This document shows, piece by piece, positions 12,836-47,638 of a DNA stretch of 64,000 nt (the stretch's first letter is position 1; each line of letters starts with the position of its first letter). Made by a program: the position numbers and the translations under genes. The notes under the pieces are model-generated. The model worked only from the letters and a program-made list of their open reading frames with translations, was not told the origin of the DNA and ran no database searches. The DNA is taken from NCBI GenBank assembly GCA_027310625.1, contig DAIDAM010000002.1, positions 65,123 to 129,122 on the forward strand. The letters are read 5' to 3'. This stretch comes from a bacterium. GTDB lineage: Bacteria > Patescibacteriota > Minisyncoccia > UBA6257 > 2-01-FULL-56-20.

Positions 12836-12844
12836 TTCAATGAA

Positions 12845-25672: not shown

Positions 25673-25827
25673 AAATGAGCATGCATTAAGGGCTAATGGT
25701 GGATGCCTAGACATCAAAAGGCGACGAAGGACGCGGCGTAGCTGCGATAAGCTTCGGTGAGGTGCGTAGCAACCGATGACCCGGAGATTTCCGAATGGAG
25801 CAATCCAACACAGTAAACCTGTGTTGT

Positions 25828-25969
25828 CGTGCCTCACTATCGTTCGGCACTATTGCTATCGCGCGAATGGGCGAATTATTACGAACATACGAATTATTAA
25901 ACTGATTCGTAAGTTCGTATCCTATTCGTAAATTCGTGCGATAGAAGTGGCGAGCGGCAGCGAGGCACG
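25828..25969. repeat. 23S palindromic insertion, family A copy 1 (CGCGCGAATnnGCGAAT...TTACGAAC.TACGAAT...TTCGTAAATTCGTGCGATAGAAGTGGCGAGCGGCAGCGAGGCAC)
   Basis: Flanked by complementary GTGCCTCAC...GCGAGGCAC; interrupts conserved 23S sequence before GAAACATCTCAGTA. Confidence 0.6.
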
Positions 25970-26049
25970 ACGCAAACCCGCTGAAGTGAAACATCTCAGT
26001 AAGCGGAGAAAAAGAGAACAATCAAGTCCTCTGTTTCACATATCCCATC

Positions 26050-26235
26050 AATTTGACAGAGCGAATCTTGAGACAGATTCGCGGCGCGAGGAGCGCAGTG
26101 TGCCGGTAGGCACATAAGCGACGAGCAACAAAGAAGCTGGCCAAGATTCGCCTGCCCGAAAGGGAAACGAAAAATTGGCCGATTTCTGTGTTGCTCCTCG
26201 TCGACGTAGCTTTGGCTACAATCTCCTCGTTGCGC
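26050..26235. repeat. 23S insertion, family C copy 1 (GATTCGCGGCGCGAGGAGCGCAGTGT...ATAAGCGACGAGCAACAAA...GTTGCTCCTC)
   Basis: Second copy at 30650-30900. Confidence 0.5.
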
Positions 26236-26341
26236 CTTGAAGTCGTCTCATTCTTTCGCTTTCAAATTTGACGGTATATGTGAAATAGAGGACGTTATTC
26301 CCTCAGTAGCGGCGAGCGAAAAGGGAAGAGCCGAAACTAAT

Positions 26342-26475
26342 CGTGCCTCACCGCCGTTCAGCACTCCATCGCGCGAATAGCCGAATTTTTACGAACGTAC
26401 GAATGAAACCAATTCGTATGTTCGCGCCGATTCGTAAATTCGTGCGATAGAAGTGGCGAGCGGCAGCGAGGCACG
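26342..26475. repeat. 23S family A copy 2
   Basis: cgtgcctcaccgccg...ttcgtaaattcgtgcgatagaagtggcgagcggcagcgaggcacg. Confidence 0.6.
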
Positions 26476-26507
26476 ATTGGGGTAACAAGAGAGAAACGCT
26501 CTTAAAG

Positions 26508-26580
26508 TGTCACGTGTCATGGGTCATGTGTCAGGATTTTTCTTGATACTTGATACTTGACACCTGATACTTTGAGGTGG
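26508..26580. repeat. Tandem heptamer tract in the 23S (GTGTCAC/GTGTCAT/GGGTCAT/GTGTCAG then CTTGATA x3)
   Basis: Direct reading. Confidence 0.5.
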
Positions 26581-26813
26581 AGAAGTTACAAAATTTTTGC
26601 CTAGCTGAATCTGCTGGAAAGCAGAACCAAAGACGGTGAAAGTCCGGTAGGCGAAAGGCAAAAATCTTCTTAGTTTCCCGGCGCACATAATTTATGTGCG
26701 CAGCCGAGCACAAAACTTGTTTTGTGCTCTGGTTTATCTTCAGTACTTCGAGGCAAAAAAACTTCGAAGGAATTAGCGAGTACTATCTCGCAAGGCTAAA
26801 TACTTTTGATGAT

Positions 26814-26850
<37 letters not shown>

Positions 26851-26904
26851 CAGGCCGGTGAGGCCGTTGAAATAGAACCTGAAACCATTTGCCTACAAGG
26901 ATTC

Positions 26905-27033
26905 GGAGCTCTCCGCTATCGCTTTGAGCTCCTCTATCGCGCGAATATGCGAATTCTTACGAATGTACGAATTCGTAAATTCGTATTTTTTTCGTAATTC
27001 GTGCGATGGGGAACTCCGAGCGGTAGCGAGGAG
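26905..27033. repeat. 23S family A copy 3
   Basis: ctatcgcgcgaatatgcgaattcttacgaatgtacgaattcgtaaattcg...ttcgtgcgatgggg. Confidence 0.55.
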
Positions 27034-27140
27034 TGACGAAGTGCCTATTGAAGAATGAGCCAACGACTTATGGTGCATTGCTTGTGTAAGTACCTTTAAG
27101 GGATGTACGCGCAGGGAGACCGAGTCTTAATAGGGCGTAT

Positions 27141-27266
27141 CGTGTCTCACTATTGTTCGACACGTTATCGCGCGAATAAGCGAATAATTACGAACTTACG
27201 AATTCGTATATTCGCAACCGATTTGTAAATTCGTGCGATAGAAGTGGCGAGCGGCAGCGAGGCACG
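27141..27266. repeat. 23S family A copy 4
   Basis: cgtgtctcactattg...gcgcgaataagcgaataattacgaacttacgaattcg...ttcgtgcgatagaagtggcgagcggcagcgaggcacg. Confidence 0.6.
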
Positions 27267-27607
27267 AAAAGCAGTGCATCATAGACCCGAAGCCGGATGA
27301 GCTTGCCTTGGCCAGGTTGAATTTCGCAGAAATGCGGGAGGAGGACCGAACTGGTGGGTTGTTCAAAACCCTCGGATGAGCTGAGGCAAGGAGTGAAAAG
27401 CTAATCGAATTCGGTAATAGCTGGTTCTCTCCGAAATAGTTTTAGGACTAGCGGTGAAAGTTACCTGTGGGGGTAGAGCTACTGGATGATTCGTAAAGGC
27501 CGAAAGGCCGGCGAATCAATCAAACTCCGAATACCGCAGGCCATATTTCACTAGTCAGACTGTGGGGGCTAAGCTCCATGGTCAAAAGGGAAACAGCCCA
27601 ACGCTCA

Positions 27608-27720
27608 ACTTCGTTTCGCTTCATCGCGCGAACAAGCGAATTTTACGAATGTACGAATCTGTATTCGTAAGTTCGTAATTTATTCGTAAATTCGTGCGAT
27701 GGATGCGAGCGGAAACGAGC
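27608..27720. repeat. 23S family A copy 5
   Basis: catcgcgcgaacaagcgaattttacgaatgtacgaatctgtattcgtaagttcgtaatttattcgtaaattcgtgcgatgg. Confidence 0.55.
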
Positions 27721-27954
27721 ATCAGATCATCATCTAAGGCCCCTAAATGCGCGCTAAGTGTTAAAGGCAGTCGTAATCCATAGACAGATAGGAGGTTGGC
27801 TTAGAGGTAGCCATCCTTTAAAGAGTGTGTAACAACTCACTATTCGACTCGCCTCGCTTCGCGAGAGCGAAGCTGGGTGGGACCGCGGCGCCGAAAATGT
27901 ACCGGGGCTAAGCGCGCTGCCGAAGATATGAATCGTTCGCTTCGCTCACTGTTG

Positions 27955-28040
27955 CAATCCGAACAATCCGAATTCCATCCGAATGTTCCGAATATTCGGG
28001 GCATTCGGATGCATTCGTAGGTTCGGATTGCGGTAGCGAG
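27955..28040. repeat. Family B copy 2 inside the 23S
   Basis: caatccgaacaatccgaattccatccgaatgttccgaatattcggggcattcggatgcattcgtaggttcggattgcgg. Confidence 0.55.
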
Positions 28041-28587
28041 CGGAGCGAGCGGTGGTAGGAGAGCATTCCCGTTGCGCCGAAGGAAGATCCGCGAGGACTT
28101 CTGGAGCGGCGGGAAGAGAGAATGTTGGCATGAGTAACCACAATCCTAATGAGAAATTGGGACCCCGAAAATCCAAGGTTTCCGTGGCACTGGCAATCAA
28201 CCACGGGTTAGTCGGCCCTAAGGCGATGGCGAAAGCCGCAGCCGATGGACAGACGGTTAATATTCCGTCACTCCCGCAGTTTTCAATGGAGGGACGAGAT
28301 TCAGTAGATGGAGCGCCTTATTGGTTTGGCGTCCTTGCGCGAGGATTCCCGGCTGGAAAATCCGTCGGGATGCGTTCAATCGCAAATCCCAGCAAAAAGG
28401 CAACTCCGATGTTTTCATTGGGGGAGTTCGTCGAGCGGATCTCCAAGAAAAACTTCTAAGGTTAAAATTGCGGAATCCGTACCGTAAACCGACACTGGTG
28501 GATAGGGCGAGAAGCCCAAGGGGAACGAGTGATTCGCCGTTAAGGAACTCGGCAAAAAAGCGGCCGTAAGTTAGCGATAAGGCCTGC

Positions 28588-28660
28588 CTTGTTCGGATGT
28601 CGGACTTCGGACGTCAGATTTCGGATAATCTGGCATCTGATTTCTGAAATCCGATATCTG
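28588..28660. repeat. Palindromic TCGGATG/TCAGATT heptamer tract in the 23S
   Basis: ttcggatgtcggacttcggacgtcagatttcggataatctggcatctgatttctgaaatccgatatctgaac; the two halves are reverse complements. Confidence 0.5.
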
Positions 28661-29290
28661 AACTAGGCCGCAGCGAAAGTTTTCCTGGCGACTGTTTACC
28701 AAAAACACAGCTCCCTGCGAACTCGCAAGAGGATGTATAGGGGGTGACGCCTGACCGATGCGAGAAGGTCAAGACTGCCTGTCGCATCTCACTAAGGTGA
28801 GATGCTCTGATATTCATTGAAATTAGTTCGCCGAAGGCGAACGAAAATTAATAGAAATTATTGGTGATAAATTTCGCGAGCGAAGCGAGCAAATTTCTAT
28901 AAATTTCAGCGAAGCGAATATCAAAAGCACCGAACTTTAGTGAGGTGCGGCGGAGTGGTTCAAGCCCTCGTCAATGTCAGCAATAACTATAATTGTTCTA
29001 AGGTAGCGCAGTTCCTTTCCGGGTAAGTTCCGGAGCGCACGAATGGCGTAACGACTGGGAAACTGTCTCGACGGCGAGCTCGGTGAAAATGCGATTCCCG
29101 TGAAGACGCGGGATACCTGCAGCGGGACGGAAAGACCCCGGAAGCTTTACTGCAGCTTGGTATTGGCTTTAAGGTCTTGATGCGTAGCGTAGTGGGGAGG
29201 GTTTGAAGCTCCGATTTCGGTCGGAGTGGACCCGACAATGAAACACCCATCTTTAGGACTTTAAATTCTAACCATACCAGAACCCCTCTT

Positions 29291-29390
29291 TGCGCATAAG
29301 CGCAAAGCGCAGAAGGACGCAGAATGAACGCGGACTAACGCAGAATTTTTTTCAGCGTGGGTCTGCGTAAAGTCAGCGTGAGTCAGCGCT
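29291..29390 (+). repeat. Composite palindromic mini-element (ACGCAGA arm + TCAGCGT arm) in the 23S, copy a
   Basis: gcgcagaaggacgcagaatgaacgcggactaacgcagaa + tttttttcagcgtgggtctgcgtaaagtcagcgtgagtcagcgc, closed by cctctttg ... caaagagg. Confidence 0.6.
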
Positions 29391-29630
29391 TTGTTTACTC
29401 GTGAACAAAGAGGGGAAGCTGGTGAGGGACAGTGCTTGGCGGGCAGTTTCAATGGGGCGTTGTCCTCCTAAAGAGTAACGGAGGAGTCTATTAAGGTCGG
29501 CTTGGCCCGGATGGAAACCGGGCTGGACGCGTAAAGGCAGAAGCCGGCTTAACTGCAAGACCTACAAGTCGCGCAGATGCGAAAGCAGAGCTTAGTGACC
29601 CGACCACTATGTCAGTGCTTCGCACTGACC

Positions 29631-29708
29631 GCAGAATAACGCGGAACGAACGCAGAACTACGCAGAACTTTCAGCGTAAGTCAGCGTCAAGTCCGCGTGA
29701 GTCCGCGG
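29631..29708 (+). repeat. Composite palindromic mini-element in the 23S, copy b
   Basis: cgcagaataacgcggaacgaacgcagaactacgcagaac + tttcagcgtaagtcagcgtcaagtccgcgtgagtccgcgg. The right arm is near-identical to the lepA and cca copies. Confidence 0.65.
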
Positions 29709-29917
29709 CCAATGCGGAGCATTGGCTCTTCATAGAAAGGTGGGAGACACCGGATAAAAGCTACTCCGGGGATAACAGGCTGGTGAGATCCGAGAGTCCC
29801 TATCGACGATCTCGCTCGGCACCTCGATGTCGGCTCATCCTAGCGCGGGGCTGGAGAAGGTCCCAAGCGTTTGGCTGTTCGCCAATTAAAAGGATACGTG
29901 AGCTGGGTTCAGACCGT

Positions 29918-30585
29918 CAAAATAACTGAACCGAGGACATCAAGCACGGCGGCTCGTCGCCGCAAGGCGACCCGAATAAATCGACTCATATCGGTGGAGT
30001 CCTAGCACGGCAACCTGTCATATGCTAGGATAATACCGAGGGAAGTTGCATATGTTGAATCTTTCGTCAACGCAAAAAGCATATTTAGCGGGATTTCTAG
30101 ACGGCGATGGGAGTATCTACGTGCGGCTGAAACCAAATACCGATTACAAGTATGGTTTTCAGGTTGCACCGTACGTTATTCTTTTCCAATCGTCCAAAGA
30201 ACGTAAGAAATTTGAAAAGGTTTGTTCCTTAATTGGTCTCGGATACATTCGAGAAAGAAAGGATAGAATTTTGGAATACACCATCGGCAGGGAAAAAGCA
30301 ATCAAGTTTTTTCTTAAAATGGTGATTCCGTATCTGATTCTAAAAAAGAAGCAAGCAATTCTTACGTTGGAAATCCTGGATATGAAAATGAAAATCAAAA
30401 ACAAGAACGATTTTCAGGCGTTGATGAATAAGATAGATATTTTTCGTAATCTGAATTATTCGAAAAAGCGTAAAAAGCATGTGTTAACCTCGTAGAGACT
30501 ACACGTCGATCCCGAGCACATAAAGCGTTGCGTGCTTCGGTGGTGGTATAGTCCGACACTCTTAGTAATAGGAGATTACAGTATG
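29918..30585 (+). mobile_element. Presumed group I intron in the 23S at the I-CreI-type site (between CGT and CGTGAGACAG), carrying a LAGLIDADG ORF
   Basis: Conserved exon sequence GGGTTCAGACCGT | ... | CGTGAGACAGGTCGGTCCC is reconstituted if 29918-30585 is removed; the insert ends in G and the 5' exon ends in T. Confidence 0.6.
30046..30495 (+). CDS. LAGLIDADG homing endonuclease, single-motif homodimeric type
   Basis: KAYLAGFLDGDGSIYV motif; 149 aa; AT-rich; located inside the rRNA insert. Confidence 0.85.
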   Translation: MHMLNLSSTQKAYLAGFLDGDGSIYVRLKPNTDYKYGFQVAPYVILFQSSKERKKFEKVCSLIGLGYIRERKDRILEYTIGREKAIKFFLKMVIPYLILKKKQAILTLEILDMKMKIKNKNDFQALMNKIDIFRNLNYSKKRKKHVLTS

Positions 30586-31580: not shown

Positions 31581-31699
31581 TTCCCGGTGATTTAGTGATA
31601 TGTGTCCTACCTCTTCCCATTCCGAACAGAGAAGTAAAAGCATATCACTCCGATGATACTCATGGCTTCGGCTGTGGGGAAAGTAGGACTCGCCGGGAT
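31581..31699 (+). rRNA. rrf: 5S rRNA
   Basis: TCCCGGTGATTTAGTGATATGTGTCCTACCTCTTCCCATTCCGAACAGAGAAGTAAAAGC...GGGGAAAGTAGGACTCGCCGGGA aligns to the 5S consensus (CCGAAC..GAAGT.AA.C, GAGAGTAGG); helix I ends are complementary. Confidence 0.7.
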
Positions 31700-33421: not shown

Positions 33422-34501
33422 ATGCTTCAGAAATTGAGTTTTAAAGAAATCTTTCTTTCCAAGAACATTTTTTTACCGCTTTCGGTAGTTTTGCTTTTCA
33501 GTCTCGTCGTTTTGTCCAGCATATCGGAAGATCTTTTTTACAGACAGGCCTTATTTATAGCTCTCGGGTTCGTAATTGTTCTCACTTTCAGGAAGTTTGA
33601 TTTTCTGCCGGTTTTAAGACACAGATGGCTGATTACGGGCATTTATGCCGCATCAATATTTTTTCTGGTTTTGGTTCTTCTTATCGGCCCTGATATAAGA
33701 AATGTGAAAAGCTGGCTCGTTCTCGGGCCGATAGGATTCCAGCCGTCCGAAATTGCGAAGGTCGCCTTGATACTTGTTCTTTCTGATTACTTCAGCAGAA
33801 GGCATTTATCTGTCGCTCGCTGGAAAATAATATTTACATCGTTTCTTTTTTTTATCGTGCCCGCCGTTTTGGTTGCCGCCCAGCCGGCGCTCGGCTCCGC
33901 AGCCGTTCTTTTTGTAATTTGGTTTGGATTCCTTCTTTCAAGCGGCTTGCCGCGAAACAGAATACTTCTTTTTTCTGCCGCATTCGTCGTTTTCGGAATA
34001 CTCCTTTGGAACTGGGGATTGAAAGATTATCAAAAAGACAGGATAACCCATTTCTTTTACCCCGAGAAAAACGTTTTGGGGGCGAATTACAGCGTCGTTC
34101 AGTCAAAAGTGGCGATTGGCTCCGCCGGACTTTGGGGAGAGGGGTACAGACAGGGGTCGCAAACACAACTCGGCTTTCTCGCTGAGCCGACAAACGACTT
34201 TATTCTCGCCGCTTTGACGGAGGAGTGGGGGCTTGCGGGCGGACTTTTGACAATAGGAGCGTTTTTCATGCTCATGTTCGGGATAATGAAGACGGCTTCT
34301 GCGGCTGTAAGAAATTTTGACAAGTTCGTCTGTCTTGGGACCGTGATATCTTTGGGAACCCAGTTTTTCCTGAACAGCGGTTCAGCGCTCGGAATCGTTC
34401 CGGTCGTCGGGATACAATTTCCCTTTTTGAGTTACGGGGGTTCGAGTGTTTTGACTAACTTCTTTCTTATAGCTATCATCTCGTCCATTGGTAAAAAATG
34501 A
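33422..34501 (+). CDS. SEDS-family peptidoglycan polymerase (RodA/FtsW)
   Basis: PSEIAKVALILVLSDYFS, GSAGLWGEGY..GSQTQLGFLAEPTNDFILAA, FPFLSYGGSSVLTNF. Confidence 0.85.
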   Translation: MLQKLSFKEIFLSKNIFLPLSVVLLFSLVVLSSISEDLFYRQALFIALGFVIVLTFRKFDFLPVLRHRWLITGIYAASIFFLVLVLLIGPDIRNVKSWLVLGPIGFQPSEIAKVALILVLSDYFSRRHLSVARWKIIFTSFLFFIVPAVLVAAQPALGSAAVLFVIWFGFLLSSGLPRNRILLFSAAFVVFGILLWNWGLKDYQKDRITHFFYPEKNVLGANYSVVQSKVAIGSAGLWGEGYRQGSQTQLGFLAEPTNDFILAALTEEWGLAGGLLTIGAFFMLMFGIMKTASAAVRNFDKFVCLGTVISLGTQFFLNSGSALGIVPVVGIQFPFLSYGGSSVLTNFFLIAIISSIGKK

Positions 34502-34624
34502 TCCCGTTAGAAGCAACTAACCCTTTGTTTTCAGAAAATGCCCTACATTACAAACAAAAAAGCCGATTACAGCTCAAGACAGTTGAATTACGGTCGTCCG
34601 GAGACAACCTGCTTCTAACGGGAT
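34501..34624. mobile_element. MITE-like element, CCCGTTAGA family copy 2, exactly filling the rodA stop / mltG start junction with ATGAT duplicated on both sides
   Basis: aaaaATGAT|CCCGTTAGAAGCA...TGCTTCTAACGGG|ATGATttt. The left ATGA supplies the rodA TGA stop and the right ATGA supplies the mltG ATG. Confidence 0.65.
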
Positions 34625-35591
34625 GATTTTTATTGAGAATTTTTTAAGGAGCAAAATTGTCTTGTTCGTTATTTTAATATCTTTCCTTTTCATTTTTTTT
34701 CTTTTTTACGGTTTGAGCCCCGCCTCGGCGGAAAAAGGGCAGATTATTTTTGAAGTTTCGCGCGGCGAGGGTTTCTTCGACATAATGAATCGTTTGAAAA
34801 ACGAAAATCTCATACGTTCTCCTGCGGCTTTCACATTTTACTCGGTTATTTCGGGGTCGGCCCGGAAAATGAAGCCCGGTATTTACCAGCTTCGCGGCGA
34901 GATGAATGCATTTGAAATAGCGAATACTTTGAGTGATTCTCCTCAAGCAGTAAAGGTTGTAATACCCGACGGTGCGACCATTTACGAAATTGACGCAATA
35001 TTAAGCGAGAAAAAAATATTACCCCCGGGGTTTCTTGCCTCTTTCGAAGAAAAAAACGACATTGAAGGAAAACTTTTTCCGGACACTTACGAATTTTTTA
35101 AAAATTCATCAGTTGAGGACGTCGTTCAAAAATTCCTTGAAAATTTCTCGGAAAAAGCCGAACCAATTTTGAAAAAGGATTCCCTAAACTACAGAAGGAA
35201 TCTGATCATCGCGTCGCTCATACAAAAAGAAGTTCCCGACGGCGACGATGCAAGAGTCATATCGGGCATTCTTAGAAAACGCCTTTCCGCCGGAATGAAA
35301 CTGGATGTTGACGCGACAATTTGCTACATCAAGAAAATTTTGAAAGCGATAAGTTCCTGTTATCCCCTTAGCGACGACGATTTCAAAATTGATTCGCCCT
35401 ACAACACCTACCTTCATTCCGGGTTGCCTCCCGGCCCGATAGGGAATCCGAACGCCGCGATGATAAACGCCGCGGTTAACCCCCTATCTTCGCCTTATTG
35501 GTTTTATTTGAGCGACCCGAAAACGGAGAAGACGATTTTTGCAAAGACGCTTGACGAGCAGAACACGAACCGCGCAATTTATTTGCGGTAG
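34623..35591 (+). CDS. mltG: Endolytic murein transglycosylase MltG (YceG family)
   Basis: N-terminal TM helix; DSPYNTYLHSGLPPGPIGNPNAAMINAAVNP signature. Confidence 0.85.
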   Translation: MIFIENFLRSKIVLFVILISFLFIFFLFYGLSPASAEKGQIIFEVSRGEGFFDIMNRLKNENLIRSPAAFTFYSVISGSARKMKPGIYQLRGEMNAFEIANTLSDSPQAVKVVIPDGATIYEIDAILSEKKILPPGFLASFEEKNDIEGKLFPDTYEFFKNSSVEDVVQKFLENFSEKAEPILKKDSLNYRRNLIIASLIQKEVPDGDDARVISGILRKRLSAGMKLDVDATICYIKKILKAISSCYPLSDDDFKIDSPYNTYLHSGLPPGPIGNPNAAMINAAVNPLSSPYWFYLSDPKTEKTIFAKTLDEQNTNRAIYLR

Positions 35592-36547: not shown

Positions 36548-39500
36548 ATGTCAAAAATTCTCCCCCTAAAAGATTTTTCAAAGTTCAAGTTGCTCGCCAT
36601 ACCTTCGGATTTCAACGAAATTCAGCTGAAGTCCTATCAGTGGTTCTTGAAAGACGGCATGCGTGAGATCTTGGAGGAGGTTTCTCCGATTCGCGACCAC
36701 ACCGGAAAGGAACTTGAGCTTTACTTTGAGGGTTTTCGTTTTGACAAACCGAAGGCGGACGAAGCAACCGTCGTTTACAAAGACGCGACTTATGAAATTC
36801 CCCTTTACATAAAAGTCCGCCTGGAAAACAAAAAAACGGGAAAGTCCATGGCGCAGGAGATCTATTTGGGAGATTTCCCGGCGATGACGGACAGAGGGAC
36901 CTTTATCATAAACGGAGTGGAAAGAGTCGTCGTTTCCCAGCTTATAAGATCTTCGGGCGTCTACTTCACTTCTTCGCTGTGGCATGACCAGCAGCTTTTC
37001 GGAGCAAAAGTTATTCCCAATCGCGGCGCATGGCTGGAGTTTGAAACGGATGCCGACGGAACGATCGGCGTAAAAATAGACAGAAACAGAAAAGTTCCGG
37101 TAACCGATCTTCTGCGGGTTTTTTCCGCCCAGGGCGGAGGAGTAACCGACGATGTCATAAAGTCAAAATTTCAGGACGCGGACCGCGGGCCGATAAAGTA
37201 TATTGATGCAACTCTTAAAAAAGACGCCGCGAAAAGTTTGGATGAATCATACGTTGAGATTTACAGAAGATTAAGGCCCGGCGACCCCGCCACGCCCGCA
37301 ACCGCAAAAAACCTCGTTGATTCAATATTCCATCGTTTTGAACGCTATGACCTTTCGCCGGTCGGAAGATTCAAACTTAACCAGCGCCTGGGCATAAACT
37401 CCGCCGTGCACGGCGGGGTAAAAAAGACGAAAGAAAACCGTCTCCTTGACCTTGAAGACCTTCTTCTCATCGTCAGGGAAATAATAAGGCTCAACAATAC
37501 CCCGGGAGCGAAACCGGACGACATAGATCATCTCGGCAATCGCCGGTTGAAATCCGTCGGAGAGCTTCTTCAGGGCCGACTCCGTGTTGGGCTCGCGCGT
37601 CTCCGAAGAATAATCCAGGACAGGATGTCGACGCTGGAGAGAGATTCGCTCACCCCGGCTCAGCTTATAAACTTCCGGCCGATTAACGCGGTCGTAAAGG
37701 AGTTCTTCGCATCCTCGCAACTTTCGCAGTTTATGGACCAGGTGAATCCGCTTGCGGAACTGGAACACAAGCGCCGTCTTTCGGCGCTCGGTCCCGGCGG
37801 ACTCCGCAGAGAACACGCCGGATTCGAAGTGCGCGACGTCCACCATTCTTACTACGGAAGAATTTGTCCGATACTTACTCCCGAGGGGACGAACATCGGG
37901 CTCATAAATTATCTCGCCGACTTCGCGCGCGTGAATGACTTCGGTTTTTTGGTGACGCCGTACGTCAAAATCAAAAACGGAAAGATAACCAATGAAATAA
38001 TCTGGCTGGACGCGATTGAAGAGGAAAAACACAAAATTGTCCACGCGACGGCTGAAAGAGACGGCAATAAAATCCTCGGCGACATTCTGGAAGCGCGCTT
38101 CGGCGGCGAGGTCGGAACTTATCCGACCGGCGAAATTGATTTGATGGAGGTTGCCCCTCATCAGTTCGTAAGCATTGCTTCTTCGCTGATTCCTTTTCTT
38201 CAGCACACCGACGCTTCCCGCGCGCTGATGGGTTCCAACATGCAGAGGCAGGCGGTGCCTTCGGTAAAGCCCGCCGCCCCTCATATAATGACCGGGCAGG
38301 AGGAAAAATCCGCCAAGGACTCGGGGTACGTCGTTACCGCCGAAGCCGACGGAAAAGTGACGGCCGTGGACGCTCTTTCCGTTACCGTTCAATACGGAAG
38401 AGAGAAAAAGACCCACAGCCTCACGAAATTCAAGCGCTCCAACCAGTACACATGCATTCTTCAGAGACCCGTTGTTTCGCTTGGCCAGCAGGTGAAAAAA
38501 GGCGATGTTTTGGTTGACGGGCCTTCAACCGACAACGGAATTCTTTCTCTCGGCCAAAACCTTACCGTTGCTTTCATGTCTTGGGAGGGAGCGAATTTTG
38601 AAGACGCGATAATAGTTTCCGAGCGCGTAGTTCGCGACGATCTTTTTACCTCCATACACATAGAAGATTTTTACTGCGATGTCCGCGACACGAAGCTCGG
38701 TCCCGAAATAACGACGCCCGACCTTCCGAACGTTGCGGAAGAAAAACTCAAAAATCTCGACGAGGAAGGAATAATCCGCATCGGCGCCGAGGTCAAAGCG
38801 GGGGACATACTTGTCGGAAAAATTTCTCCCAAAGGGGAAACAGAACTTACCGCCGAGGAGCGGCTTCTCCGCGCGATTTTCGGAGAGAAAGCAAGGGACG
38901 TAAAAGATACGTCCCTCACCCTGCCGCACGGCAAGCGCGGGAGGGTCGTCGGCGTTAAAGTTTTCTCGCGCGACGAGGGCGATAAGCTGGAGGTCGGCGT
39001 GATAAAACGCATTCAGGTTGAAGTTGCGAACCTTCGCAAGGTCCAGTCCGGAGACAAGCTTGCCGGCCGTCACGGGAACAAGGGCGTCATTTCGCAGGTG
39101 CGGCCGATGGAAGATATGCCTTACCTTGAAGACGGAACTCCCGTTGACATAATTTTGAATCCTCTGGGCGTCGTTTCCCGAATGAACCTGGGGCAGATTC
39201 TTGAAACGCATCTTGGGTGGGCGGCTTCGAAAATCGGCTACCGCGCGATTACGCCCGGCCTTGATTCGGCGAAAGAGGAAGAAATACGCGAGGAGCTCAA
39301 GAAGGCAGGCCTCCCGGAGGACGGAAAAGTTACGCTCCGCGACGGGCAGACCGGACAGCCCTTTGACCAGAAGATTACCGTCGGAACGATTTACATGATG
39401 AAGCTCAATCACCTCGTTGAGGACAAAGTGCACATGCGCTCCATCGGTCCTTATTCGCTTATCACGCAGCAGCCGCTCGGCGGCAAGGCGCAGTTCGGAG

Positions 39501-42500
39501 GACAGAGGTTCGGCGAAATGGAAGTTTGGGCGCTTGAGGGCTACGGCGCGAGGCACACCTTGCAGGAGATGCTCACGATAAAATCGGACGACGTTATGGG
39601 ACGCTCGGCGGCTTACGAATCCATCATACGCGGGGAACCGATAAGGGAGCCGAACATTCCCGCGACTTTCAACGTTTTATTGAGCGAACTTAAAGCGCTG
39701 GGATTAAACGTGGAGCCCGTTTATGAATCGGAAACCGACAGACGCGACGATTTCAAGGCGCTCAGGATAAGCCCTGCCTCCCCGGAAGACATCGTCGGCA
39801 AATGGTCTCACGGCGAAGTTACGAAGCCGGAGACCATCAACTACAGAACGCAGCGCCCCGAAAAAGATGGACTCTTTTCGGAACGCATTTTCGGCCCCGT
39901 GAAGGATTACGAGTGTTACTGCGGAAAATACCGCCGCATAAGATACAAAGGGATAGTTTGCGACCGCTGCGGAGTGGAGGTGACGCGCGCTTCCGTGAGA
40001 AGAGAACGCCTCGGGCACATCAATCTGGCGGCTCCGGTGGCGCATAACTGGTTCTTTAAGGCGATTCCTTCGCGTTTGAGTTTAATTCTCAACGTTTCTT
40101 CGTCAAAACTGGAACGCGTCATTTATTACGTGGACTACATCGTTACGGAAGTGAACGAGGATAACAGGAAAGCCGCGCTTGAGGAAGTGGAAAGAGAACT
40201 GAAAGGCAAGATAAAGACCTTCAAATCCGTTGCGACGAAAAAATCCGCGAAGAAAGTTTCCAGCGAGCTTGAATCCGCGGCGGACCAGATAAAATCAACG
40301 CTTTTGAGCATAAGGCCGGGGCTCGTTTTGAGCGAAACTGAATATCTGAACCTGAGCAAAAGATTCGGCAACGTCTTCGCGGCCGGGACGGGAGCGGAAG
40401 CCATCAGAAAAATTCTTGAGAGAATGGACCTCAAAGGCGAGATACATACGATGGAAAAGGAACTGGAGTTTTCAAAAAAGAGCGCCGCAGACACGAAAAC
40501 TTTCAGACGCCTAAAACTCTTCCGTTCTATGCTCAAAAACGGCATACGGCCGGAGTGGCTGATTATGACGGCTTTGCCCGTTTTGCCGCCCGATCTCCGT
40601 CCCATGGTTGCGCTGGACGGCGGAAGATACGCGACGTCGGACCTGAACGACCTTTACCGCCGCGTCATCAACAGAAACAACAGATTGAAGCGGCTGATGG
40701 AAATAAAAGCCCCCGAAGTAATCATAAAGAACGAAAAAAGAATGCTTCAGGAATCCGTTGACGCCCTCATAGACAACTCAACGAGGTTTGGAGCCCAGCA
40801 GATGTCGTCGCAGAGGCGGCCGCTTCGTTCGCTCGCCGATATGTTGAAAGGAAAGCAGGGAAGATTCAGGCAGAATCTTCTCGGGAAGCGCGTTGATTAT
40901 TCCGGCCGCTCGGTTATCGTTGTTGGTCCCAATCTTGATTTGGATGAATGCGGCATTCCGAAAAAAATGGCGCTTGAGCTTTTCCGCCCCTTCGTCATCC
41001 AGGAAATAATAAAAAGGGGAATGGCGCACACGATAAGGAACGCCAACCGTCTCATTGAGCAGGCCGGGGACGAAATTTACGCGATACTTGAAGAGATAAT
41101 AAAGGACCGGCACGTACTTTTGAATCGCGCCCCGACGCTTCACCGTCTCGGCATCCAGGCGTTCAAGCCGCTTTTGATTGAGGGTCTCGCCATTCAGATT
41201 CCGCCCCTTGTCTGCGTCGCGTTCAACGCCGATTTTGACGGGGACCAGATGGCCGTTCACCTTCCGCTTTCTTCCAACGCCCAGAAAGAGGCGTTGGAAA
41301 TAATGTCGGCGAGAAGAAATATTCTGAAGCCCGCGACCGGCGACCTTGTGGCGGTGCCGACAAACGACATTGTTCTCGGCCTTTACTACCTGACGATGGT
41401 CGATAAAGAAGGAAAAGGAAACGGCAAAGCGTTTGTCGGAATTGAAGAGGCGGTTGCCGCTTTCGAAAACGGAATTATTTCGCTTCACGCCCCCGTGAGA
41501 ATAGGAGAGGAGGAAACAACTCTGGGCAGGGCGATTTTCGGCGAAGCGCTGGGCGACGTCCCGGAGCATCTGGAGACAAAAGACACGTTCAACAAGAAAA
41601 AACTTTCCAAATTTATAGGCGGGTTGGTCGGGCATTTTGGGCTGGAAAAGGCGACCGAAATACTTGTTAAAGTTAAAAACCTCGGGTTCAGGATAGCGAC
41701 AAGATCCGGAATAACCTGGGCGATGGCTGATTTGATAATTCCAAAAGCGAAGGAAGGCATAATCAAAAAAGCCGAGGAAGAAATTTCTATTGTTCGCGAG
41801 CAGTACCGCGATGGTCTCCTTACGGACTCGGAGAGGAGGGCAAGGGTGATAAGCATCTGGGAAAATGCGAAAACGGAGATAACGAAACACGTCGCGTCGT
41901 CCTTTTACCCCGGCAACCCGATATACCAGATAATAGATTCCGGCGCGCGAGGTTCCTGGGCGCAGCCGATTCAGATGATGGGAATGAAAGGGCTTGTTCA
42001 AAACCCGCAGGGAGAAACTCTTGAGCTCCCGATTAAATCGTCCTTCAAGGAGGGCTTCAGCGTTATCGAGTACTTCATTTCCACGAGGGGCGCAAGGAAA
42101 GGAATGACCGACACCGCTCTCAAGACGGCGCAGGCCGGTTATCTTACGAGGCGTCTCGTTGACGTTTCACAGGAACTCACGATAAAGGAGGACGATTGCA
42201 GGACGACCGAAGGAATTGAAGTGTTCGTTAAGGATGCAAAGGACATTGGTCAGTCCCTTGAAACGATGCTCTTTTCAAGGACTGCTGCCGAGGATGTAAA
42301 ATCGGGCAACAAAATAATAGTGAGGGCGGGGGAAGTTATAGACAAAGATCACGTCACGGCGATACAGAACTCAAAGGTGGAGTCGGTAAAACTTCGTTCC
42401 CCGATTTCCTGCAAGACGGCTTACGGGTTCTGCCGCAAGTGCTACGGACTTGATTTGAGCAGAAACGAACTTGTGAAAAGCGGGGAAGCCGTCGGGATAA

Positions 42501-43369
42501 TAGCCGCGCAGTCAATCGGCGAGCCGGGAACCCAATTGACTCTCAGAACTTTTCACGTCGGAGGCGTTGCCGGGCTTGACATAACGCACGGACTTCCGAG
42601 GGTTGAAGAGCTTTTTGAAGCGCGCCCGCCGAAGGGAAAAGCTATTCTCTCGTCCGTTGACGGAAAAGTTGAGAAAATAGAGCAAAAAGGCGCACTCAAG
42701 GTGATCAGCGTCGCGCCGAAGGAGAAACGCGGCGCAAAGAAAAAGAAAACCGACAAAAAATTCGTTGAATACTCCGTTTCCCGAGCTGCGCTTCTTTTTG
42801 TGAATGTCGGCGACGAAGTTACGGCCGGGCAGCAGCTCTCGGAAGGCCACGTGGACCTGCAGGAACTTCTCGAATACAAGGGAAGCAAGGAAGTCGTTCG
42901 TTACATACTTAACGAAGTGCAGAAGATTTATTCAGCCGAGGGCGCTTCCATCAACAACAAACATATAGAGGTAATAATCAGACAAATGTTTTCAAGAATC
43001 AGAATAAAGGAGACCGGTGACGCGAGCGACTTCGTTATCGGAGAAATAGTGGATAAATCAAAATTTCTTGAAACGAATCGTGAGCTCAAGAGAAAAGGAA
43101 AACAACCCGCCCGCGCCCAGCAGCTCCTCCTCGGAATAACTAGAGTCGCGCTTTCAACTGAAAGTTTCCTTTCCGCAGCTTCTTTCCAGGATACTTCAAG
43201 AGTTCTTGTTCAGGCCTCGCTTGAGGGACGCGTTGACCCTCTCCGTGGACTTAAAGAGAACGTTATCATCGGTCGCCTTGTTCCGACCGGTGAAACAGCA
43301 AGGAAAAATGTTCGGGAGGAAAGCGATGAAAAAAGCGAAACCGCCGTTGCCGAGTCCGTTGAACTTTGA
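36548..43369 (+). CDS. rpoBC: Fused DNA-directed RNA polymerase beta and beta' subunits (RpoB-RpoC) as one 2273-aa ORF
   Basis: The RpoB region contains GPGGLRREHAGFEVRDVHHSYYGRICPILTPEGTNIGLINYLADF, NMQRQAVPS, GDKLAGRHGNKGVIS and ends ...SELKALGLNVEPV. It continues without a stop into RpoC: YESETDRRDDFKALRISPASPEDIVGKWSHGEVTKPETINYRTQRPEKDGLFSERIFGPVKDYECYCGKY, NADFDGDQMAVHLPLS, and so on. Confidence 0.85.
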   Translation: MSKILPLKDFSKFKLLAIPSDFNEIQLKSYQWFLKDGMREILEEVSPIRDHTGKELELYFEGFRFDKPKADEATVVYKDATYEIPLYIKVRLENKKTGKSMAQEIYLGDFPAMTDRGTFIINGVERVVVSQLIRSSGVYFTSSLWHDQQLFGAKVIPNRGAWLEFETDADGTIGVKIDRNRKVPVTDLLRVFSAQGGGVTDDVIKSKFQDADRGPIKYIDATLKKDAAKSLDESYVEIYRRLRPGDPATPATAKNLVDSIFHRFERYDLSPVGRFKLNQRLGINSAVHGGVKKTKENRLLDLEDLLLIVREIIRLNNTPGAKPDDIDHLGNRRLKSVGELLQGRLRVGLARLRRIIQDRMSTLERDSLTPAQLINFRPINAVVKEFFASSQLSQFMDQVNPLAELEHKRRLSALGPGGLRREHAGFEVRDVHHSYYGRICPILTPEGTNIGLINYLADFARVNDFGFLVTPYVKIKNGKITNEIIWLDAIEEEKHKIVHATAERDGNKILGDILEARFGGEVGTYPTGEIDLMEVAPHQFVSIASSLIPFLQHTDASRALMGSNMQRQAVPSVKPAAPHIMTGQEEKSAKDSGYVVTAEADGKVTAVDALSVTVQYGREKKTHSLTKFKRSNQYTCILQRPVVSLGQQVKKGDVLVDGPSTDNGILSLGQNLTVAFMSWEGANFEDAIIVSERVVRDDLFTSIHIEDFYCDVRDTKLGPEITTPDLPNVAEEKLKNLDEEGIIRIGAEVKAGDILVGKISPKGETELTAEERLLRAIFGEKARDVKDTSLTLPHGKRGRVVGVKVFSRDEGDKLEVGVIKRIQVEVANLRKVQSGDKLAGRHGNKGVISQVRPMEDMPYLEDGTPVDIILNPLGVVSRMNLGQILETHLGWAASKIGYRAITPGLDSAKEEEIREELKKAGLPEDGKVTLRDGQTGQPFDQKITVGTIYMMKLNHLVEDKVHMRSIGPYSLITQQPLGGKAQFGGQRFGEMEVWALEGYGARHTLQEMLTIKSDDVMGRSAAYESIIRGEPIREPNIPATFNVLLSELKALGLNVEPVYESETDRRDDFKALRISPASPEDIVGKWSHGEVTKPETINYRTQRPEKDGLFSERIFGPVKDYECYCGKYRRIRYKGIVCDRCGVEVTRASVRRERLGHINLAAPVAHNWFFKAIPSRLSLILNVSSSKLERVIYYVDYIVTEVNEDNRKAALEEVERELKGKIKTFKSVATKKSAKKVSSELESAADQIKSTLLSIRPGLVLSETEYLNLSKRFGNVFAAGTGAEAIRKILERMDLKGEIHTMEKELEFSKKSAADTKTFRRLKLFRSMLKNGIRPEWLIMTALPVLPPDLRPMVALDGGRYATSDLNDLYRRVINRNNRLKRLMEIKAPEVIIKNEKRMLQESVDALIDNSTRFGAQQMSSQRRPLRSLADMLKGKQGRFRQNLLGKRVDYSGRSVIVVGPNLDLDECGIPKKMALELFRPFVIQEIIKRGMAHTIRNANRLIEQAGDEIYAILEEIIKDRHVLLNRAPTLHRLGIQAFKPLLIEGLAIQIPPLVCVAFNADFDGDQMAVHLPLSSNAQKEALEIMSARRNILKPATGDLVAVPTNDIVLGLYYLTMVDKEGKGNGKAFVGIEEAVAAFENGIISLHAPVRIGEEETTLGRAIFGEALGDVPEHLETKDTFNKKKLSKFIGGLVGHFGLEKATEILVKVKNLGFRIATRSGITWAMADLIIPKAKEGIIKKAEEEISIVREQYRDGLLTDSERRARVISIWENAKTEITKHVASSFYPGNPIYQIIDSGARGSWAQPIQMMGMKGLVQNPQGETLELPIKSSFKEGFSVIEYFISTRGARKGMTDTALKTAQAGYLTRRLVDVSQELTIKEDDCRTTEGIEVFVKDAKDIGQSLETMLFSRTAAEDVKSGNKIIVRAGEVIDKDHVTAIQNSKVESVKLRSPISCKTAYGFCRKCYGLDLSRNELVKSGEAVGIIAAQSIGEPGTQLTLRTFHVGGVAGLDITHGLPRVEELFEARPPKGKAILSSVDGKVEKIEQKGALKVISVAPKEKRGAKKKKTDKKFVEYSVSRAALLFVNVGDEVTAGQQLSEGHVDLQELLEYKGSKEVVRYILNEVQKIYSAEGASINNKHIEVIIRQMFSRIRIKETGDASDFVIGEIVDKSKFLETNRELKRKGKQPARAQQLLLGITRVALSTESFLSAASFQDTSRVLVQASLEGRVDPLRGLKENVIIGRLVPTGETARKNVREESDEKSETAVAESVEL

Positions 43370-44677: not shown

Positions 44678-44740
44678 TCACGAAATACGAAATAGTACGA
44701 ATATACGAATTCGTGCGTTCGTAGAAATTAGTATTAGTAA
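44678..44740. repeat. Partial family A palindromic element outside the rRNA
   Basis: cacgaaatacgaaatagtacgaatatacgaattcgtgcgttcgtag shares the ACGAAT/ATTCGT units of the 23S insertions. Confidence 0.4.
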
Positions 44741-45604: not shown

Positions 45605-47638
45605 TTACAGCTTGTATACGAATATTGACGTGCCGACAATGAAGTTTGGTCCCGGCAGTTCCCCCATTCCTTTCTTTGGGGGTCGGAGCGAAGTGAGCCA
45701 GCGATACTCGTCTTCGGGGTTTCGCCTTTGTCCGGGAGCAAGCGGTTGTATGGCGCTCTGAAGCGTGTTAACCGAAACCGCGAGCCAGTATATCCCTTTT
45801 TCGGCAGGATTTCCTTTTGATGACGACCAGTCAATTTCTTTTTCTCCGAGAGAATATTTCGGATTCCCTCCGCCGAAGTAATCCACGGCGATTTTGTCTA
45901 TCCCGTTAGAAGTCGCGCTCCCCGACCGCAATCGGGGAGTCCCTTCGGGACCGCTGGCGCGGCTACTTCTAACGGGATCTATTTCTTTATAATTTTCAAC
46001 AAATTCTTTAAGCCGAATTAAATCCTGACCCCAGTCGTAATTGGAGTCAGTTACATATTTGTAACCGCCGTAAACACCTCCGCCGATTTCGTTGAAATAG
46101 GAGAGAAAATACGGCGCCGAAAAAGCGGCCTCGAGCGCAAACCAAAACACAATCACGAAAATTATTCCCGGCTTCAAAAAACGCTCCAGTTTTTCTCTTG
46201 CGCCGCCGATCCCGTTTTCGCCGTTAGCAAGAAGTTTTTTTATTGCGGCGACGGAAATAATGTAAACGAAAGGAAACGTTGGGAGAAGATGACGGACGCC
46301 TATATTCAGCGGACTTTTTACGCTGTACACCCAATAGAAAATGACAAAAACGAACATTGAAAAACCGGCGAAGTTTCTTCCGATGAAATCGAACAGCGAC
46401 TTCAGCGACTTTTTTATCCCGCCCGCGACGTTTTTTATGAACGCGAAGATGGCGAAGATTCCCGCCAAAAGAACGACTATCAGCGACGGCAAAGGTTCTT
46501 TAAGAAGATAGACGGTCGGGAAGTAAAGCGGCGAGCCGGCGGCGGAAACTTCGCCGAGAAAGTAAGCGGTGTTGCCTCCGGACGAACGCTGAAGAACCAT
46601 CAGAACGCCGAGAAGATATTCCGCAAACGGTTTTGTTATCGGATTTTTTGTCATCCAAATGTCGACGTCCGCAAGGCAGCGCACCGGCTTGCAGAGCTGT
46701 CCGGCCGGGGTCGGACCGCTCGCAAAAGAAGTGAGGATGAATTCCGTGTCGGTTGTTTGTTTTTGCGCCGGATAGTTGAGCGTGAAAAGAGCGTAGACGG
46801 GATAAACAATCGCGATGTAGCCGATTGCAAAAATTGCGATTGTCGACCGCAAGTAACGCCAGGCGCGAACGGAAAATCTTTTTATTCTCGAATCGTTTTC
46901 TGTTTTGTTCCAGTCGCGGACGACTGTCCATATAAAAAAGAGAATTATAAGAATCAGGAAATACGGAACGAGAAGCACCGTTGAGAATTTGGTGAGTTCT
47001 CCCACGCCGAAGCCTATGCCGGCAACGATGAGCCTGAAAACGGAAGGCGACAATAAAAATTTGACGAATAAGTAAGTCGCGAGAACTACGCCGAACGTCG
47101 CGCCGATATCGGTGGTTACGTAGTGTCCGTGGGCGAGTACGGTTGGTGATAATCCGAAAAATAGAGCGGGGAGAAGCGCCCACCATCTTCCGAGAATTTC
47201 CGCCGCCCAGACATAAACGAGAATTATCAAAAACAAAGTCAGCACCATCGGCAGGATTCTCGCGGAGCGGACGATATAATCGGCGTCATTCCCCGAACCG
47301 TAAAGGAAATCCGCGCCCACCGCCCATTGGCCGTTTACGTCTTTTCTCCAGGCGTCGTTGTCCGTCGGAAAATAAAGGTCGAGAAAGGTGAGCGGGAAAG
47401 CGGCAAGCACCTTCACGAGCGGCGGATGTTCGGGATTCAACCGGTAGTCGAGATTATTTAGATAACTGTAGCCGGCGGGGATGTGCGCGAGTTCGTCCAT
47501 AATCGCCGAGTCGCCGGAAGACGCCCAGAGCATCAATAGAAAAGCAGCAGCAACGATGCCGCCGAGAATTATAACCGGCAGAGACGAGCGATTGTCTAAA
47601 AATTCCTCACCCAATGGATTAAGGACATAATACCACAT
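45605..47638 (-). CDS. Membrane glycosyltransferase, GT39/ArnT-PMT-like
   Basis: N-terminal DE motif (AIMDELAHIPAGY), more than 10 TM helices and a C-terminal soluble domain. Contains the in-frame 80-bp CCCGTTAGA element, translated DPVRSSRASGPEGTPRLRSGSATSNGID. Confidence 0.6.
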   Translation of the reverse strand: MWYYVLNPLGEEFLDNRSSLPVIILGGIVAAAFLLMLWASSGDSAIMDELAHIPAGYSYLNNLDYRLNPEHPPLVKVLAAFPLTFLDLYFPTDNDAWRKDVNGQWAVGADFLYGSGNDADYIVRSARILPMVLTLFLIILVYVWAAEILGRWWALLPALFFGLSPTVLAHGHYVTTDIGATFGVVLATYLFVKFLLSPSVFRLIVAGIGFGVGELTKFSTVLLVPYFLILIILFFIWTVVRDWNKTENDSRIKRFSVRAWRYLRSTIAIFAIGYIAIVYPVYALFTLNYPAQKQTTDTEFILTSFASGPTPAGQLCKPVRCLADVDIWMTKNPITKPFAEYLLGVLMVLQRSSGGNTAYFLGEVSAAGSPLYFPTVYLLKEPLPSLIVVLLAGIFAIFAFIKNVAGGIKKSLKSLFDFIGRNFAGFSMFVFVIFYWVYSVKSPLNIGVRHLLPTFPFVYIISVAAIKKLLANGENGIGGAREKLERFLKPGIIFVIVFWFALEAAFSAPYFLSYFNEIGGGVYGGYKYVTDSNYDWGQDLIRLKEFVENYKEIDPVRSSRASGPEGTPRLRSGSATSNGIDKIAVDYFGGGNPKYSLGEKEIDWSSSKGNPAEKGIYWLAVSVNTLQSAIQPLAPGQRRNPEDEYRWLTSLRPPKKGMGELPGPNFIVGTSIFVYKL
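45899..45978. mobile_element. MITE-like element, CCCGTTAGA family copy 3, inserted in frame in the glycosyltransferase with a TCTAT flank duplication
   Basis: tgTCTAT|CCCGTTAGAAGTcgcgctccccgaccgcaatcggggagtcccttcgggaccgctggcgcggctACTTCTAACGGG|ATCTATttc. Confidence 0.6.

Follow-up and report, generated by a model that had tools for sequence, protein, structure and literature searches.

Results

A palindromic element at three loci of the window

The 64,000-nucleotide stretch analyzed here (the window; positions 65,123 to 129,122 of contig DAIDAM010000002.1, assembly GCA_027310625.1, from a member of the Patescibacteriota) contains three copies of a short palindromic element, located at the start of pheS (copy 1), at the junction between a rodA/ftsW-family gene and mltG (copy 2) and within a GT39 glycosyltransferase gene (copy 3). 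The proteins nearest to those of the window are annotated as Paceibacterota or Liptonbacteria. The termini of the element, ATCCCGTTAGA...TCTAACGGGAT, were found in these three places only (six hits, both strands) and in none of 100 dinucleotide-preserving shuffles, in agreement with a preliminary description of three copies with identical ends, and the folding of each copy reached z = -5.3 to -6.9 against shuffles. As described below, the element belongs to a family that is widely distributed among Patescibacteria and located chiefly on start codons.

The features of the rodA-mltG junction are the following.

33422-34501, + strand: rodA/ftsW-family gene, 359-aa open reading frame (ORF), Pfam FTSW_RODA_SPOVE, upstream of copy 2
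34498-34502, + strand: left ATGAT duplicate, which includes the rodA stop TGA (34499-34501)
34498-34626, + strand: bridging ORF of 42 codons, MIPLEATNPLFSENALHYKQKSRLQLKTVELRSSGDNLLLTG followed by the stop; linked by an ATGA overlap to the rodA stop (through its ATG) and by another to the mltG ATG (through its TGA)
34501-34624, + strand: element copy 2, with a 15-bp terminal stem and a gene-side hairpin GGTCGTC-CGGA-GACAACC, followed by TG and the right arm
34623-34627, + strand: right ATGAT duplicate, which includes the mltG start ATG (34623-34625)
34623-35591, + strand: mltG (YceG) gene, Pfam YceG/MltG, with its start codon formed at the right end of copy 2

The arms of copy 2 (ATCCCGTTAGAAGCA / TGCTTCTAACGGGAT) are perfect over 15 nt, and the copy was recovered in two independent Logan assemblies. 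Its coordinates and letters agree with the earlier account of 15-nt inverted termini with ATGAT on both sides, and the ORFs and Pfam assignments likewise bear out that the left ATGA provides the rodA/ftsW stop and the right ATGA the mltG start. The synteny of rodA and mltG is kept in relatives, and five states of the junction were observed among the window and four related loci (L124 to L127), namely empty with an ATGA overlap, empty with a 9-nt spacer, occupied by a type A element, occupied by a type B element, and occupied by two elements in tandem. The junction of L125, whose RodA is 70% identical, is empty and reads ...AAAAGATGACC..., a plain ATGA stop/start overlap, as had been proposed for the ancestral site; L127 is also empty, with the 9-nt spacer, L124 has one element of a subtype other than that of the window, and L126 has two elements in tandem, likewise of family subtypes other than that of the window. 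The 29-mer expected at an empty copy 2 site had no match in metagenome contigs, and no empty allele from the same species was seen. At copy 2, one ATGA junction thus appears to have been turned into two, with the element presumably translated between them.

Copy 1 lies directly at the pheS start.

12840-12941, + strand: left ATG and 33-codon upstream ORF MNPVRDNKQ..., terminating within the hairpin loop, 21 nt short of the pheS ATG
12844-12964, + strand: element copy 1, with a 15-bp stem and a gene-side hairpin GGTTGTC-TAAA-GACAACC, ending within the pheS ATG
12963-14006, + strand: pheS gene, Pfam tRNA-synt_2d and Phe_tRNA-synt_N; its ATG consists of the terminal AT of the element plus G

The arms of copy 1 are ATCCCGTTAGAGACA / TGTCTCTAACGGGAT. 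The copy ends at the pheS ATG as first described, with its start at 12844 rather than 12845, and its left flank ATGAA (12840) is an imperfect repeat of the pheS ATGGA on the right. A TATAAA box at 12825-12830 precedes the left ATG by 9 nt, a layout also found at the unbroken pheS starts of relatives; in L132 and L133, pheS has no element and its start reads TATAAAC-N9-ATGGAAA. The proposal that element sequence had replaced the ribosome-binding region of pheS does not hold, since Shine-Dalgarno-like motifs were detected only at background level (23% of 52 called genes versus 20% of random positions) and the left duplicated ATG occupies the original start position relative to the TATAAA box.

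Several other features were observed around pheS. Just upstream of copy 1 lies a perfect 16-nt inverted repeat, TATACCCCGTAGGAAA / TTTCCTACGGGGTATA (12694-12709 and 12813-12828), apparently a third hairpin family, its termini being similar to those of the studied element. Its interior holds a second pheS promoter-plus-start segment (12742-12766, TAAACTTGTATTAAT + ATGGAAATAG), ATGGAAATAG being therefore present at both 12757 and 12963. Within pheS, at about 13761-13811, a 17-residue G+C-rich in-frame insertion (PAHGGALPDGGRGASGG) is missing from PheS homologues of 76-77% identity; its DNA is an imperfect palindrome starting with CCCGCCC and is probably a further small palindromic insertion. The segment 12500-12690, between the ORF at 12052-12492 and pheS, is G+C-rich, apparently structured and ends in a stem plus T-run (gctacgc...gcgtagccTTTTTTTT); it had no Rfam match at E ≤ 1 and may encode an undescribed small RNA.

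Copy 3 is located inside a gene on the opposite strand.

45605-47638, - strand: GT39 (PMT-family) glycosyltransferase gene, Pfam PMT/PMT_2, host of copy 3
45897-45901, - strand: first duplicate, TCTAT on the + strand and ATAGA on the coding strand
45900-45978, - strand: element copy 3, short G+C-rich subtype with an interior of 76% G+C; in-frame peptide (I)DPVRSSRASGPEGTPRLRSGSATSNG(I)
45978-45982, - strand: second duplicate, TCTAT on the + strand and ATAGA on the coding strand

The in-frame location and the TCTAT flanks of this copy stand as originally noted, with the start corrected from 45899 to 45900. The net gain for the GT39 gene is 81 nt, equivalent to 27 in-frame codons without a stop, and 117 of 120 GT39 homologues have no insertion at this position (...PE-IDKIAVDYFGG...). 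The DNA of a 65%-identical homologue, L130, has the empty site GAAATAGACAAAAT, compared with GAAATAGA-T-CCCG...CGGG-ATAGA-CAAAAT in the window. The same site holds a 36-nt bare-hairpin version in L003 and a different hairpin family in L004, and the length at this point also varies among other lineages. We propose that copy 3 is tolerated as a 27-residue insertion in what may be a variable loop of GT39.

Other insertions were also noted in this protein family. The homologues P0017, P0024, P0025, P0027, P0031, P0038 and P0116 (L131 2540-2686, 3227-3328) carry further in-frame insertions, among which P0027 and P0031 have a PVRSS...SNG copy of the studied element at another site, and others contain peptides such as TQINADN...NQRK, which resemble translated copies of further repeat families. 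The hairpin family that fills the copy 3 site in L004 also has a member in the window at 58321-58411 (ACCCCCACACCAAACGACAA...TTGTCGTTTGGTGCGGGGGT), with TTTGA on both sides and upstream of dprA (58562-59626).

Distribution, structure and mobility of the family

The family was surveyed in genome and metagenome collections by paired-termini scans that demanded the exact 11-nt termini, and all family counts reported here are among the matches listed. Long forms, defined by the 22 terminal bases at a separation of 45-105 nt, were detected at at least 119 loci of a species-representative genome collection, and short forms with exact paired termini at at least 120 loci of metagenome contigs, the 22 terminal bases being thus common to at least 239 loci. 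The tally comprised 262 copies, 135 from the genome set and 127 from the metagenome set. Organism labels were present on genome records only, and the labeled carriers were nearly all Patescibacteria of many classes (Saccharibacteria, Parcubacteria groups, Kerfeldbacteria, Levyibacteria and others), ultra-small bacteria with genomes of about 1 Mb; the coding share of the fetched loci, from crude ORF calls, was about 78%. The element-bearing contigs L026, L053, L072, L041, L050, L065 and L073 are labeled Omnitrophota, WOR-3 or Gammaproteobacteria, which may reflect mislabeling, binning error or a genuine spread beyond Patescibacteria. The idea of a viral origin was abandoned, with only 2 matches in 2.9 million viral contigs.

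Copies range from 28 to 133 bp and contain no ORFs other than the short upstream ORFs. The outer 11 bp of the stem, ATCCCGTTAGA/TCTAACGGGAT, were fixed by the search. Pairs 12 to 14, which were free in the search, are 93-96% Watson-Crick with all four pair types represented in 135 copies, and pairing falls to 33% at pair 15, which is why the terminal stem is taken as 14 bp. Interiors of 6 to about 110 nt differ between copies. In long forms the interior shows a local hairpin (GGNNNTC-loop-GANNNCC) or else a long-range extension (CGCGGTC...GACCGCG), and in both layouts CCTR stands just before the right arm, the rest of the interior being unrelated. The orientation of interiors relative to the downstream gene was scored by alignment, in place of a CCTR motif polarity test that was too crude, and yielded 85 same-sense and 11 reversed best matches (about 90% fixed), with at least five clear reversals at the same kind of site. 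The short G+C-rich subtype, represented in the window by copy 3, has a conserved four-helix layout in which some compensatory changes are seen between genomes. Other copies are bare hairpins of 28-35 nt, including two near-identical 33-nt copies at different ATAAA sites of one contig, and their existence suggests that the stem alone may hold all the cis signals. Near-identical copies at different sites of a single contig were found in, for example, L089, L095 and L249.

The net insertion corresponds to the element (ATCCCG to CGGGAT) plus 2 nt and leaves a 5-nt direct repeat ATNNA or, less often, a 4-nt repeat. A perfect 5-nt repeat was present in 192 of the 262 copies, with at least nine different 5-mers in which left equals right (ATGAA 136, ATGGA 29, ATAAA 8, ATTGA 6, ATGTA 4, and others), and about 10 copies, among which copy 2 is counted (ATGA), have the 4-nt variant. 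Since the repeat varies with the site, the general target would be (A)TNNA, and the ATG comes from the location of the surviving copies. Empty sites were found in relatives at all three loci of the window.

The family thus combines small size, absence of a transposase gene, terminal inverted repeats, a site-varying duplication, dispersed copies (3 in the window and more than 260 elsewhere) and presence/absence polymorphism, and fits every structural feature of a miniature inverted-repeat transposable element (MITE) except a known autonomous partner. The preliminary description had read the element as a MITE-type insertion, which the flank duplications and empty sites support, and had missed the start-codon rule and the bridging ORF. 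It had also regarded confinement to a single type of locus as an argument against insertion; 76% of the 262 copies do lie at start codons, yet duplications and empty sites persist, and the insertion reading therefore survives but needs redefining.

No long pairs of termini were found in the fetched loci, the only candidates being unpaired termini that represent degenerate small copies, and all-against-all clustering of 1059 ORFs from 119 loci revealed no neighbor family recurring in more than 6 loci, the top families being housekeeping-like. Rfam gave no credible match for the window at the gathering threshold, or for copy 1 and six copy-bearing loci at E ≤ 1 to 10; the only hit overlapping a copy (L050, AaHKsRNA41, 26.8 bits versus a gathering score of 97) was read as chance. 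We found no prior description of a start-codon-specific element or of a MITE of Patescibacteria in the literature on repeats, MITEs and start codons of Patescibacteria and the candidate phyla radiation (CPR), of which the searchable part is incomplete, making an earlier description possible; the phrase "start codon" is absent from a 2024 review of prokaryotic MITEs.

Copies are concentrated on start codons

The terminal AT of the element plus G forms the ATG of a long ORF in 114 of 135 genome copies and 86 of 127 metagenome copies, so that 200 of the 262 (76%) abut a start codon. With the gene placed to the right, the flanks read ATG(A/G) / ATCCCG...CGGGAT / G(A/G)A, corresponding to a direct repeat ATGRA, in 85-88 of 114 copies. 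Because the repeat at start codons is ATG(A/G)A, an intact ATG stands on both sides of the element. For every start-codon site there are, according to crude gene calls, about 28 non-coding ATNNA sites elsewhere (28:1), yet the copies at start codons are several-fold more numerous than all other non-coding copies. An upstream ORF has its stop codon within the left repeat or left arm in 24 of 114 copies, an arrangement also seen at copy 2. Copies that are not at a start codon lie in frame within genes, adjoin stop codons or are in tandem with another copy. The in-frame intragenic copies are a minority (about 6%) and belong to the short G+C-rich subtype, and the copies spanned by an ORF are all free of stops, with a length of 1 mod 3 in 14 of 15. 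The excess at start codons could result from directed integration, from purifying selection in a genome that has hardly any neutral DNA, or from slower loss; slower loss would be expected because only a precise deletion is viable on an essential start codon.

Translation signature of the element

A TATAAT-like box precedes the left duplicated ATG with a spacer peak at 6-7 nt (21/92). This is the spacing expected of transcription starting at the A of the ATG, from which we infer a leaderless mRNA at the left ATG. Two frames of the arms (PVR/SNG and PLE/LTG) contain no stop, the third having TAG or TAA. Among long forms in which the frame of the left ATG would end beside the gene ATG, this frame is free of stops across the interior in 31 of 69 cases, compared with 14 of 138 for control frames (p = 5e-8), a contrast that holds after de-replication (85 clusters) and was replicated in the independent metagenome short-form set (34/55 versus 27/110, p = 6e-6). 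These upstream ORFs end at UAA-CGGG-AUG, 4 nt before the gene ATG, or at an AUGA overlap, and where the upstream ORF of a long form would run on into the gene's own frame, only 2 of 23 are open. Judged from these frames, translation through the element is under selection.

A hairpin looped out so as to restore Shine-Dalgarno spacing was also considered and dropped, since Shine-Dalgarno-like motifs before the left ATG reached 18%, compared with 20% at random positions. In the related loci L124-L133, L003 and L004 and in the flanks of the 92 elements, a TATAAT box stands 6-10 nt ahead of the ATG in many genes, suggesting that leaderless mRNAs are widespread in these Patescibacteria.

Discussion

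A proposed mobile element that preserves translation

The element is probably a non-autonomous, palindromic MITE-like element that has spread across Patescibacteria and persists almost only where translation remains unbroken, chiefly on start codons. The left ATG would retain native initiation, either through a -10 box at the distance suited to a leaderless mRNA or through the stop codon of the upstream gene, and transcription would proceed from the native promoter. Ribosomes starting at this ATG would read into the element (MNPVR... or MIPLE...), melting the stem, would terminate in about half of the copies at the right-arm UAA (UAA-CGGG-AUG) or at the AUGA overlap, and would then re-initiate on the host gene. 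At copy 2 this mechanism would run between rodA and mltG through the 42-codon bridging ORF. The variable repeats that match on left and right suggest movement in trans by a cut-and-fill (DDE-like) transposase; because no autonomous element or enzyme was found, this mechanism is deduced indirectly. The ends (CCC..., with a 4-5-bp duplication) may also resemble those of IS1380/piggyBac-type elements, a similarity on which no conclusion is based.

A bolder proposal, which we advance tentatively, is that of a start-codon-homing element, either directed to start codons or kept only there, with a built-in translational transparency and possibly also serving as a control handle. The transparency device would consist of the duplication of the ATG, arms that encode MNPVR/MIPLE with stops in fixed frames, and an upstream ORF ending on the host ATG, and would operate in leaderless, Shine-Dalgarno-poor genomes. 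As the same 14-bp stem is present on many mRNA 5' ends of each carrier genome, it could offer a single stem-binding factor a genome-wide handle for post-transcriptional control.

Several points weigh against the interpretation as a MITE-like, translation-preserving element. About 1.7 Mb of fetched loci yielded no autonomous element, transposase or recombinase bearing these termini, the span of the search pattern being shorter than a transposase gene, and the exact-termini, limited scans give neither the copy number per genome nor the conservation of the termini. Start codons were called from an ATG and ORF length without a gene finder, with a minimum of 60 codons, lowered to 25 open codons for short metagenome contigs that end first, and such crude calls overestimate the intergenic space in the count of ATNNA sites. 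The upstream ORF stops early in about half of the start-codon copies, and termination coupling at the ATG is therefore not the sole route of gene expression. The depletion of open upstream ORFs in frame with the gene was not reproduced in the short-form set, in which 11 of 20 were open. A strict sigma-70 scan upstream of copy 1 detected no promoter, only a 5/6 TATAAA box, and transcription, leaderless starts and re-initiation are all deduced from sequence alone. Selection by itself may fall short of explaining a more than 100-fold excess at start codons, for which directed targeting or slower loss may be responsible.

Alternative explanations

That the hairpin is primarily a conserved cis-regulatory RNA, a 5'-leader structure bound by an RNA-binding protein or ribonuclease, with a secondary spread and a functional location on start codons, seems unlikely. 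The presence of 76% of copies at start codons, the gene-relative orientation that is about 90% fixed, the identical 11-bp stem in very distant Patescibacteria, the covariation of stem pairs and of the interior hairpins of the G+C-rich subtype, and a start codon half buried at the base of the 14-bp stem are all compatible with such a role. The site-dependent repeats and empty sites nevertheless show arrival by insertion, copies are also found in frame in genes, beside stop codons and in the form of bare hairpins of 28-35 nt, no relationship links the host genes and no Rfam match was obtained. The ratio of sense-strand G-U to A-C mismatches (12:6) is not significant and not decisive for an RNA or a DNA hairpin. 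A mobile element could later have been co-opted for cis-regulation, and this alternative is a rival only as the primary explanation. Conservative site-specific recombination of the integron attC or Xer/dif kind, in which a circle or folded single strand is integrated into ATGAA by a tyrosine or serine recombinase, is more improbable still. The joined ends, TCTAACGGG-ATGAAT-CCCGTTAGA, would constitute the core site and do give the classic arm-overlap-arm layout, with inverted arms around a 6-bp overlap whose asymmetry would account for the orientation bias; the arm motifs GTTAGAR / YTCTAAC resemble the attC core, of consensus GTTRRRY / RYYYAAC, and the size and variable interior are also like those of attC sites. 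Such recombination requires identical overlaps in donor and target, and it is argued against by repeats that vary in sequence with the site, left equal to right in at least nine 5-mers, and in length (5 or 4 nt). Along the hairpin, the core-like motifs moreover follow one another in the opposite order to attC, at least five copies are reversed at the same kind of site, no integrase recurs near copies in the fetched loci, and the copies lie at housekeeping genes in conserved synteny, outside cassette arrays.

We give very little credence to an RNA-level intervening sequence, that is, a hairpin cut from the transcript, with or without religation, whose content would be irrelevant to translation. 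Long perfect stems are substrates of the RNase III type, Correia elements are cut in this manner (PMC10969869), and the 23S rRNA gene of the window has large insertions. If the RNA were removed before translation, constraints on frame would be needless, yet the intragenic copies are in frame and stop-free (14/15) and the frame of the left ATG is preferentially open, which argues against excision. Chance inverted repeats or an assembly artefact have a negligible probability: the metagenome-assembled origin of the source genomes is the sole point in favor, against which stand the absence of matches in shuffles, the recovery of copy 2 from two independent assemblies and the hundreds of copies in unrelated assemblies.

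Comparison with known repeats

The mobile, translation-preserving element proposed here shares features with several known systems. Correia elements of Neisseria (CREE), which have 26-bp inverted repeats and a TA duplication, are likewise small and multicopy, without a transposase gene, and have terminal inverted repeats and a target-site duplication. They are not known outside one genus or to be tied to the start codon itself, whereas in the present family the duplication holds the start codon, the arms carry stops, the upstream ORF ends on the gene ATG and the distribution is superphylum-wide. Bacterial MITEs such as Correia often lie just upstream of genes, with which they are co-transcribed, and are able to alter the expression of their neighbors (PMC10969869). 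Rickettsia palindromic elements (RPEs) are palindromes of about 150 bp found in frame in unrelated genes of a reduced genome and translated as an extra peptide, which is conserved within each family (PMC10969869). The behavior of copy 3 and of 14 other intragenic copies is comparable, although limited to a minority subtype and with conserved residues (PVR...SNG) that derive from the arms only. RPEs are, in addition, not known outside Rickettsia, and with Patescibacteria as a different host phylum, homology between the family and the RPE families is unlikely.

The closest functional parallel to the bridging ORF of copy 2 is provided by mycobacterial interspersed repetitive units (MIRUs), which Supply et al. 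reportedly described in 1997 as short operon-intergenic repeats with small ORFs overlapping the flanking stop and start codons. Unlike the family, MIRUs are direct tandem repeats (variable-number tandem repeats, VNTRs) without terminal inverted repeats, hairpin or target duplication, and are not known to lie on the start codon of a first gene. Repetitive extragenic palindromes (REP) and the derived REPINs consist of two inverted short repeats folding into a single long hairpin; they reach high copy numbers, and a REP-associated tyrosine transposase (RAYT), encoded elsewhere by a single-copy gene, mobilizes them in trans. REPINs are extragenic, are not known to leave a target duplication, have a GTAG/GGAG foot and are found mainly in Proteobacteria. 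These traits do not apply to the family, where duplications are present, copies overlap start codons and ORFs, and no GTAG foot was found. The attC sites (about 57-141 bp) resemble the family in having conserved terminal inverted cores only, with a variable center, and GTTAGAR is similar to GTTRRRY. With the inverse core RYYYAAC at the 5' end and the core GTTRRRY at the 3' end, their order is reversed relative to the element, in which GTTAGAR is 5' and YTCTAAC is 3' on both strands, and the family differs further in direct repeats that vary with the site and in the absence of cassette arrays and of a nearby integrase.

Implications

If correct, this interpretation describes a new insertion strategy for selfish DNA, which lands on a start codon, duplicates it and hands ribosomes on, and explains how repeats can multiply with genes unbroken in compact genomes that have almost no free intergenic space. 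It also provides sequence evidence on the start of translation in Patescibacteria, few of which have been cultured, with Shine-Dalgarno motifs at background level, -10 boxes 6-7 nt from the ATG and common stop/start coupling. Gene callers are prone to misplace starts or to report spurious peptides or insertions (PVRS...SNGI) at element sites. The identical 22 terminal bases constitute a simple marker across the superphylum, both for horizontal exchange and for seeking the responsible enzyme or a binding factor, and the in-frame copies flag permissive protein loops such as that of GT39.

Additional features of the window

Other hairpin families of the CCC...GGG kind were seen (ACCCCCACACC... 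and ACCCCGTAGGAAA...). Between the sigma-70 gene (51662-52876) and alaS (53032-54969), a 20-nt inverted repeat of 90% complementarity (52880-52899 / 52993-53012) surrounds a 93-nt G+C-rich segment. TACGAAT / CGAATTCG-rich palindromes, located at 26957-27217 in an insertion of the 23S rRNA gene and at 44684-44735 in an intergenic segment, represent a separate repeat family. The 23S rRNA gene (region 25676-30495) measures 4355 nt, compared with 2925 nt for the model, with about 1.4 kb of insertions that include several long inverted repeats. An ORF for a LAGLIDADG endonuclease is located at 30046-30495, and a 36-nt inverted repeat resembling a processing stem surrounds the 5S rRNA (31582-31699). 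A single ORF of 2273 aa at 36548-43369 contains all RpoB (Rpb2) and RpoC (Rpb1) domains and corresponds to a fused rpoB-rpoC, the two genes being fused in four relatives as well.

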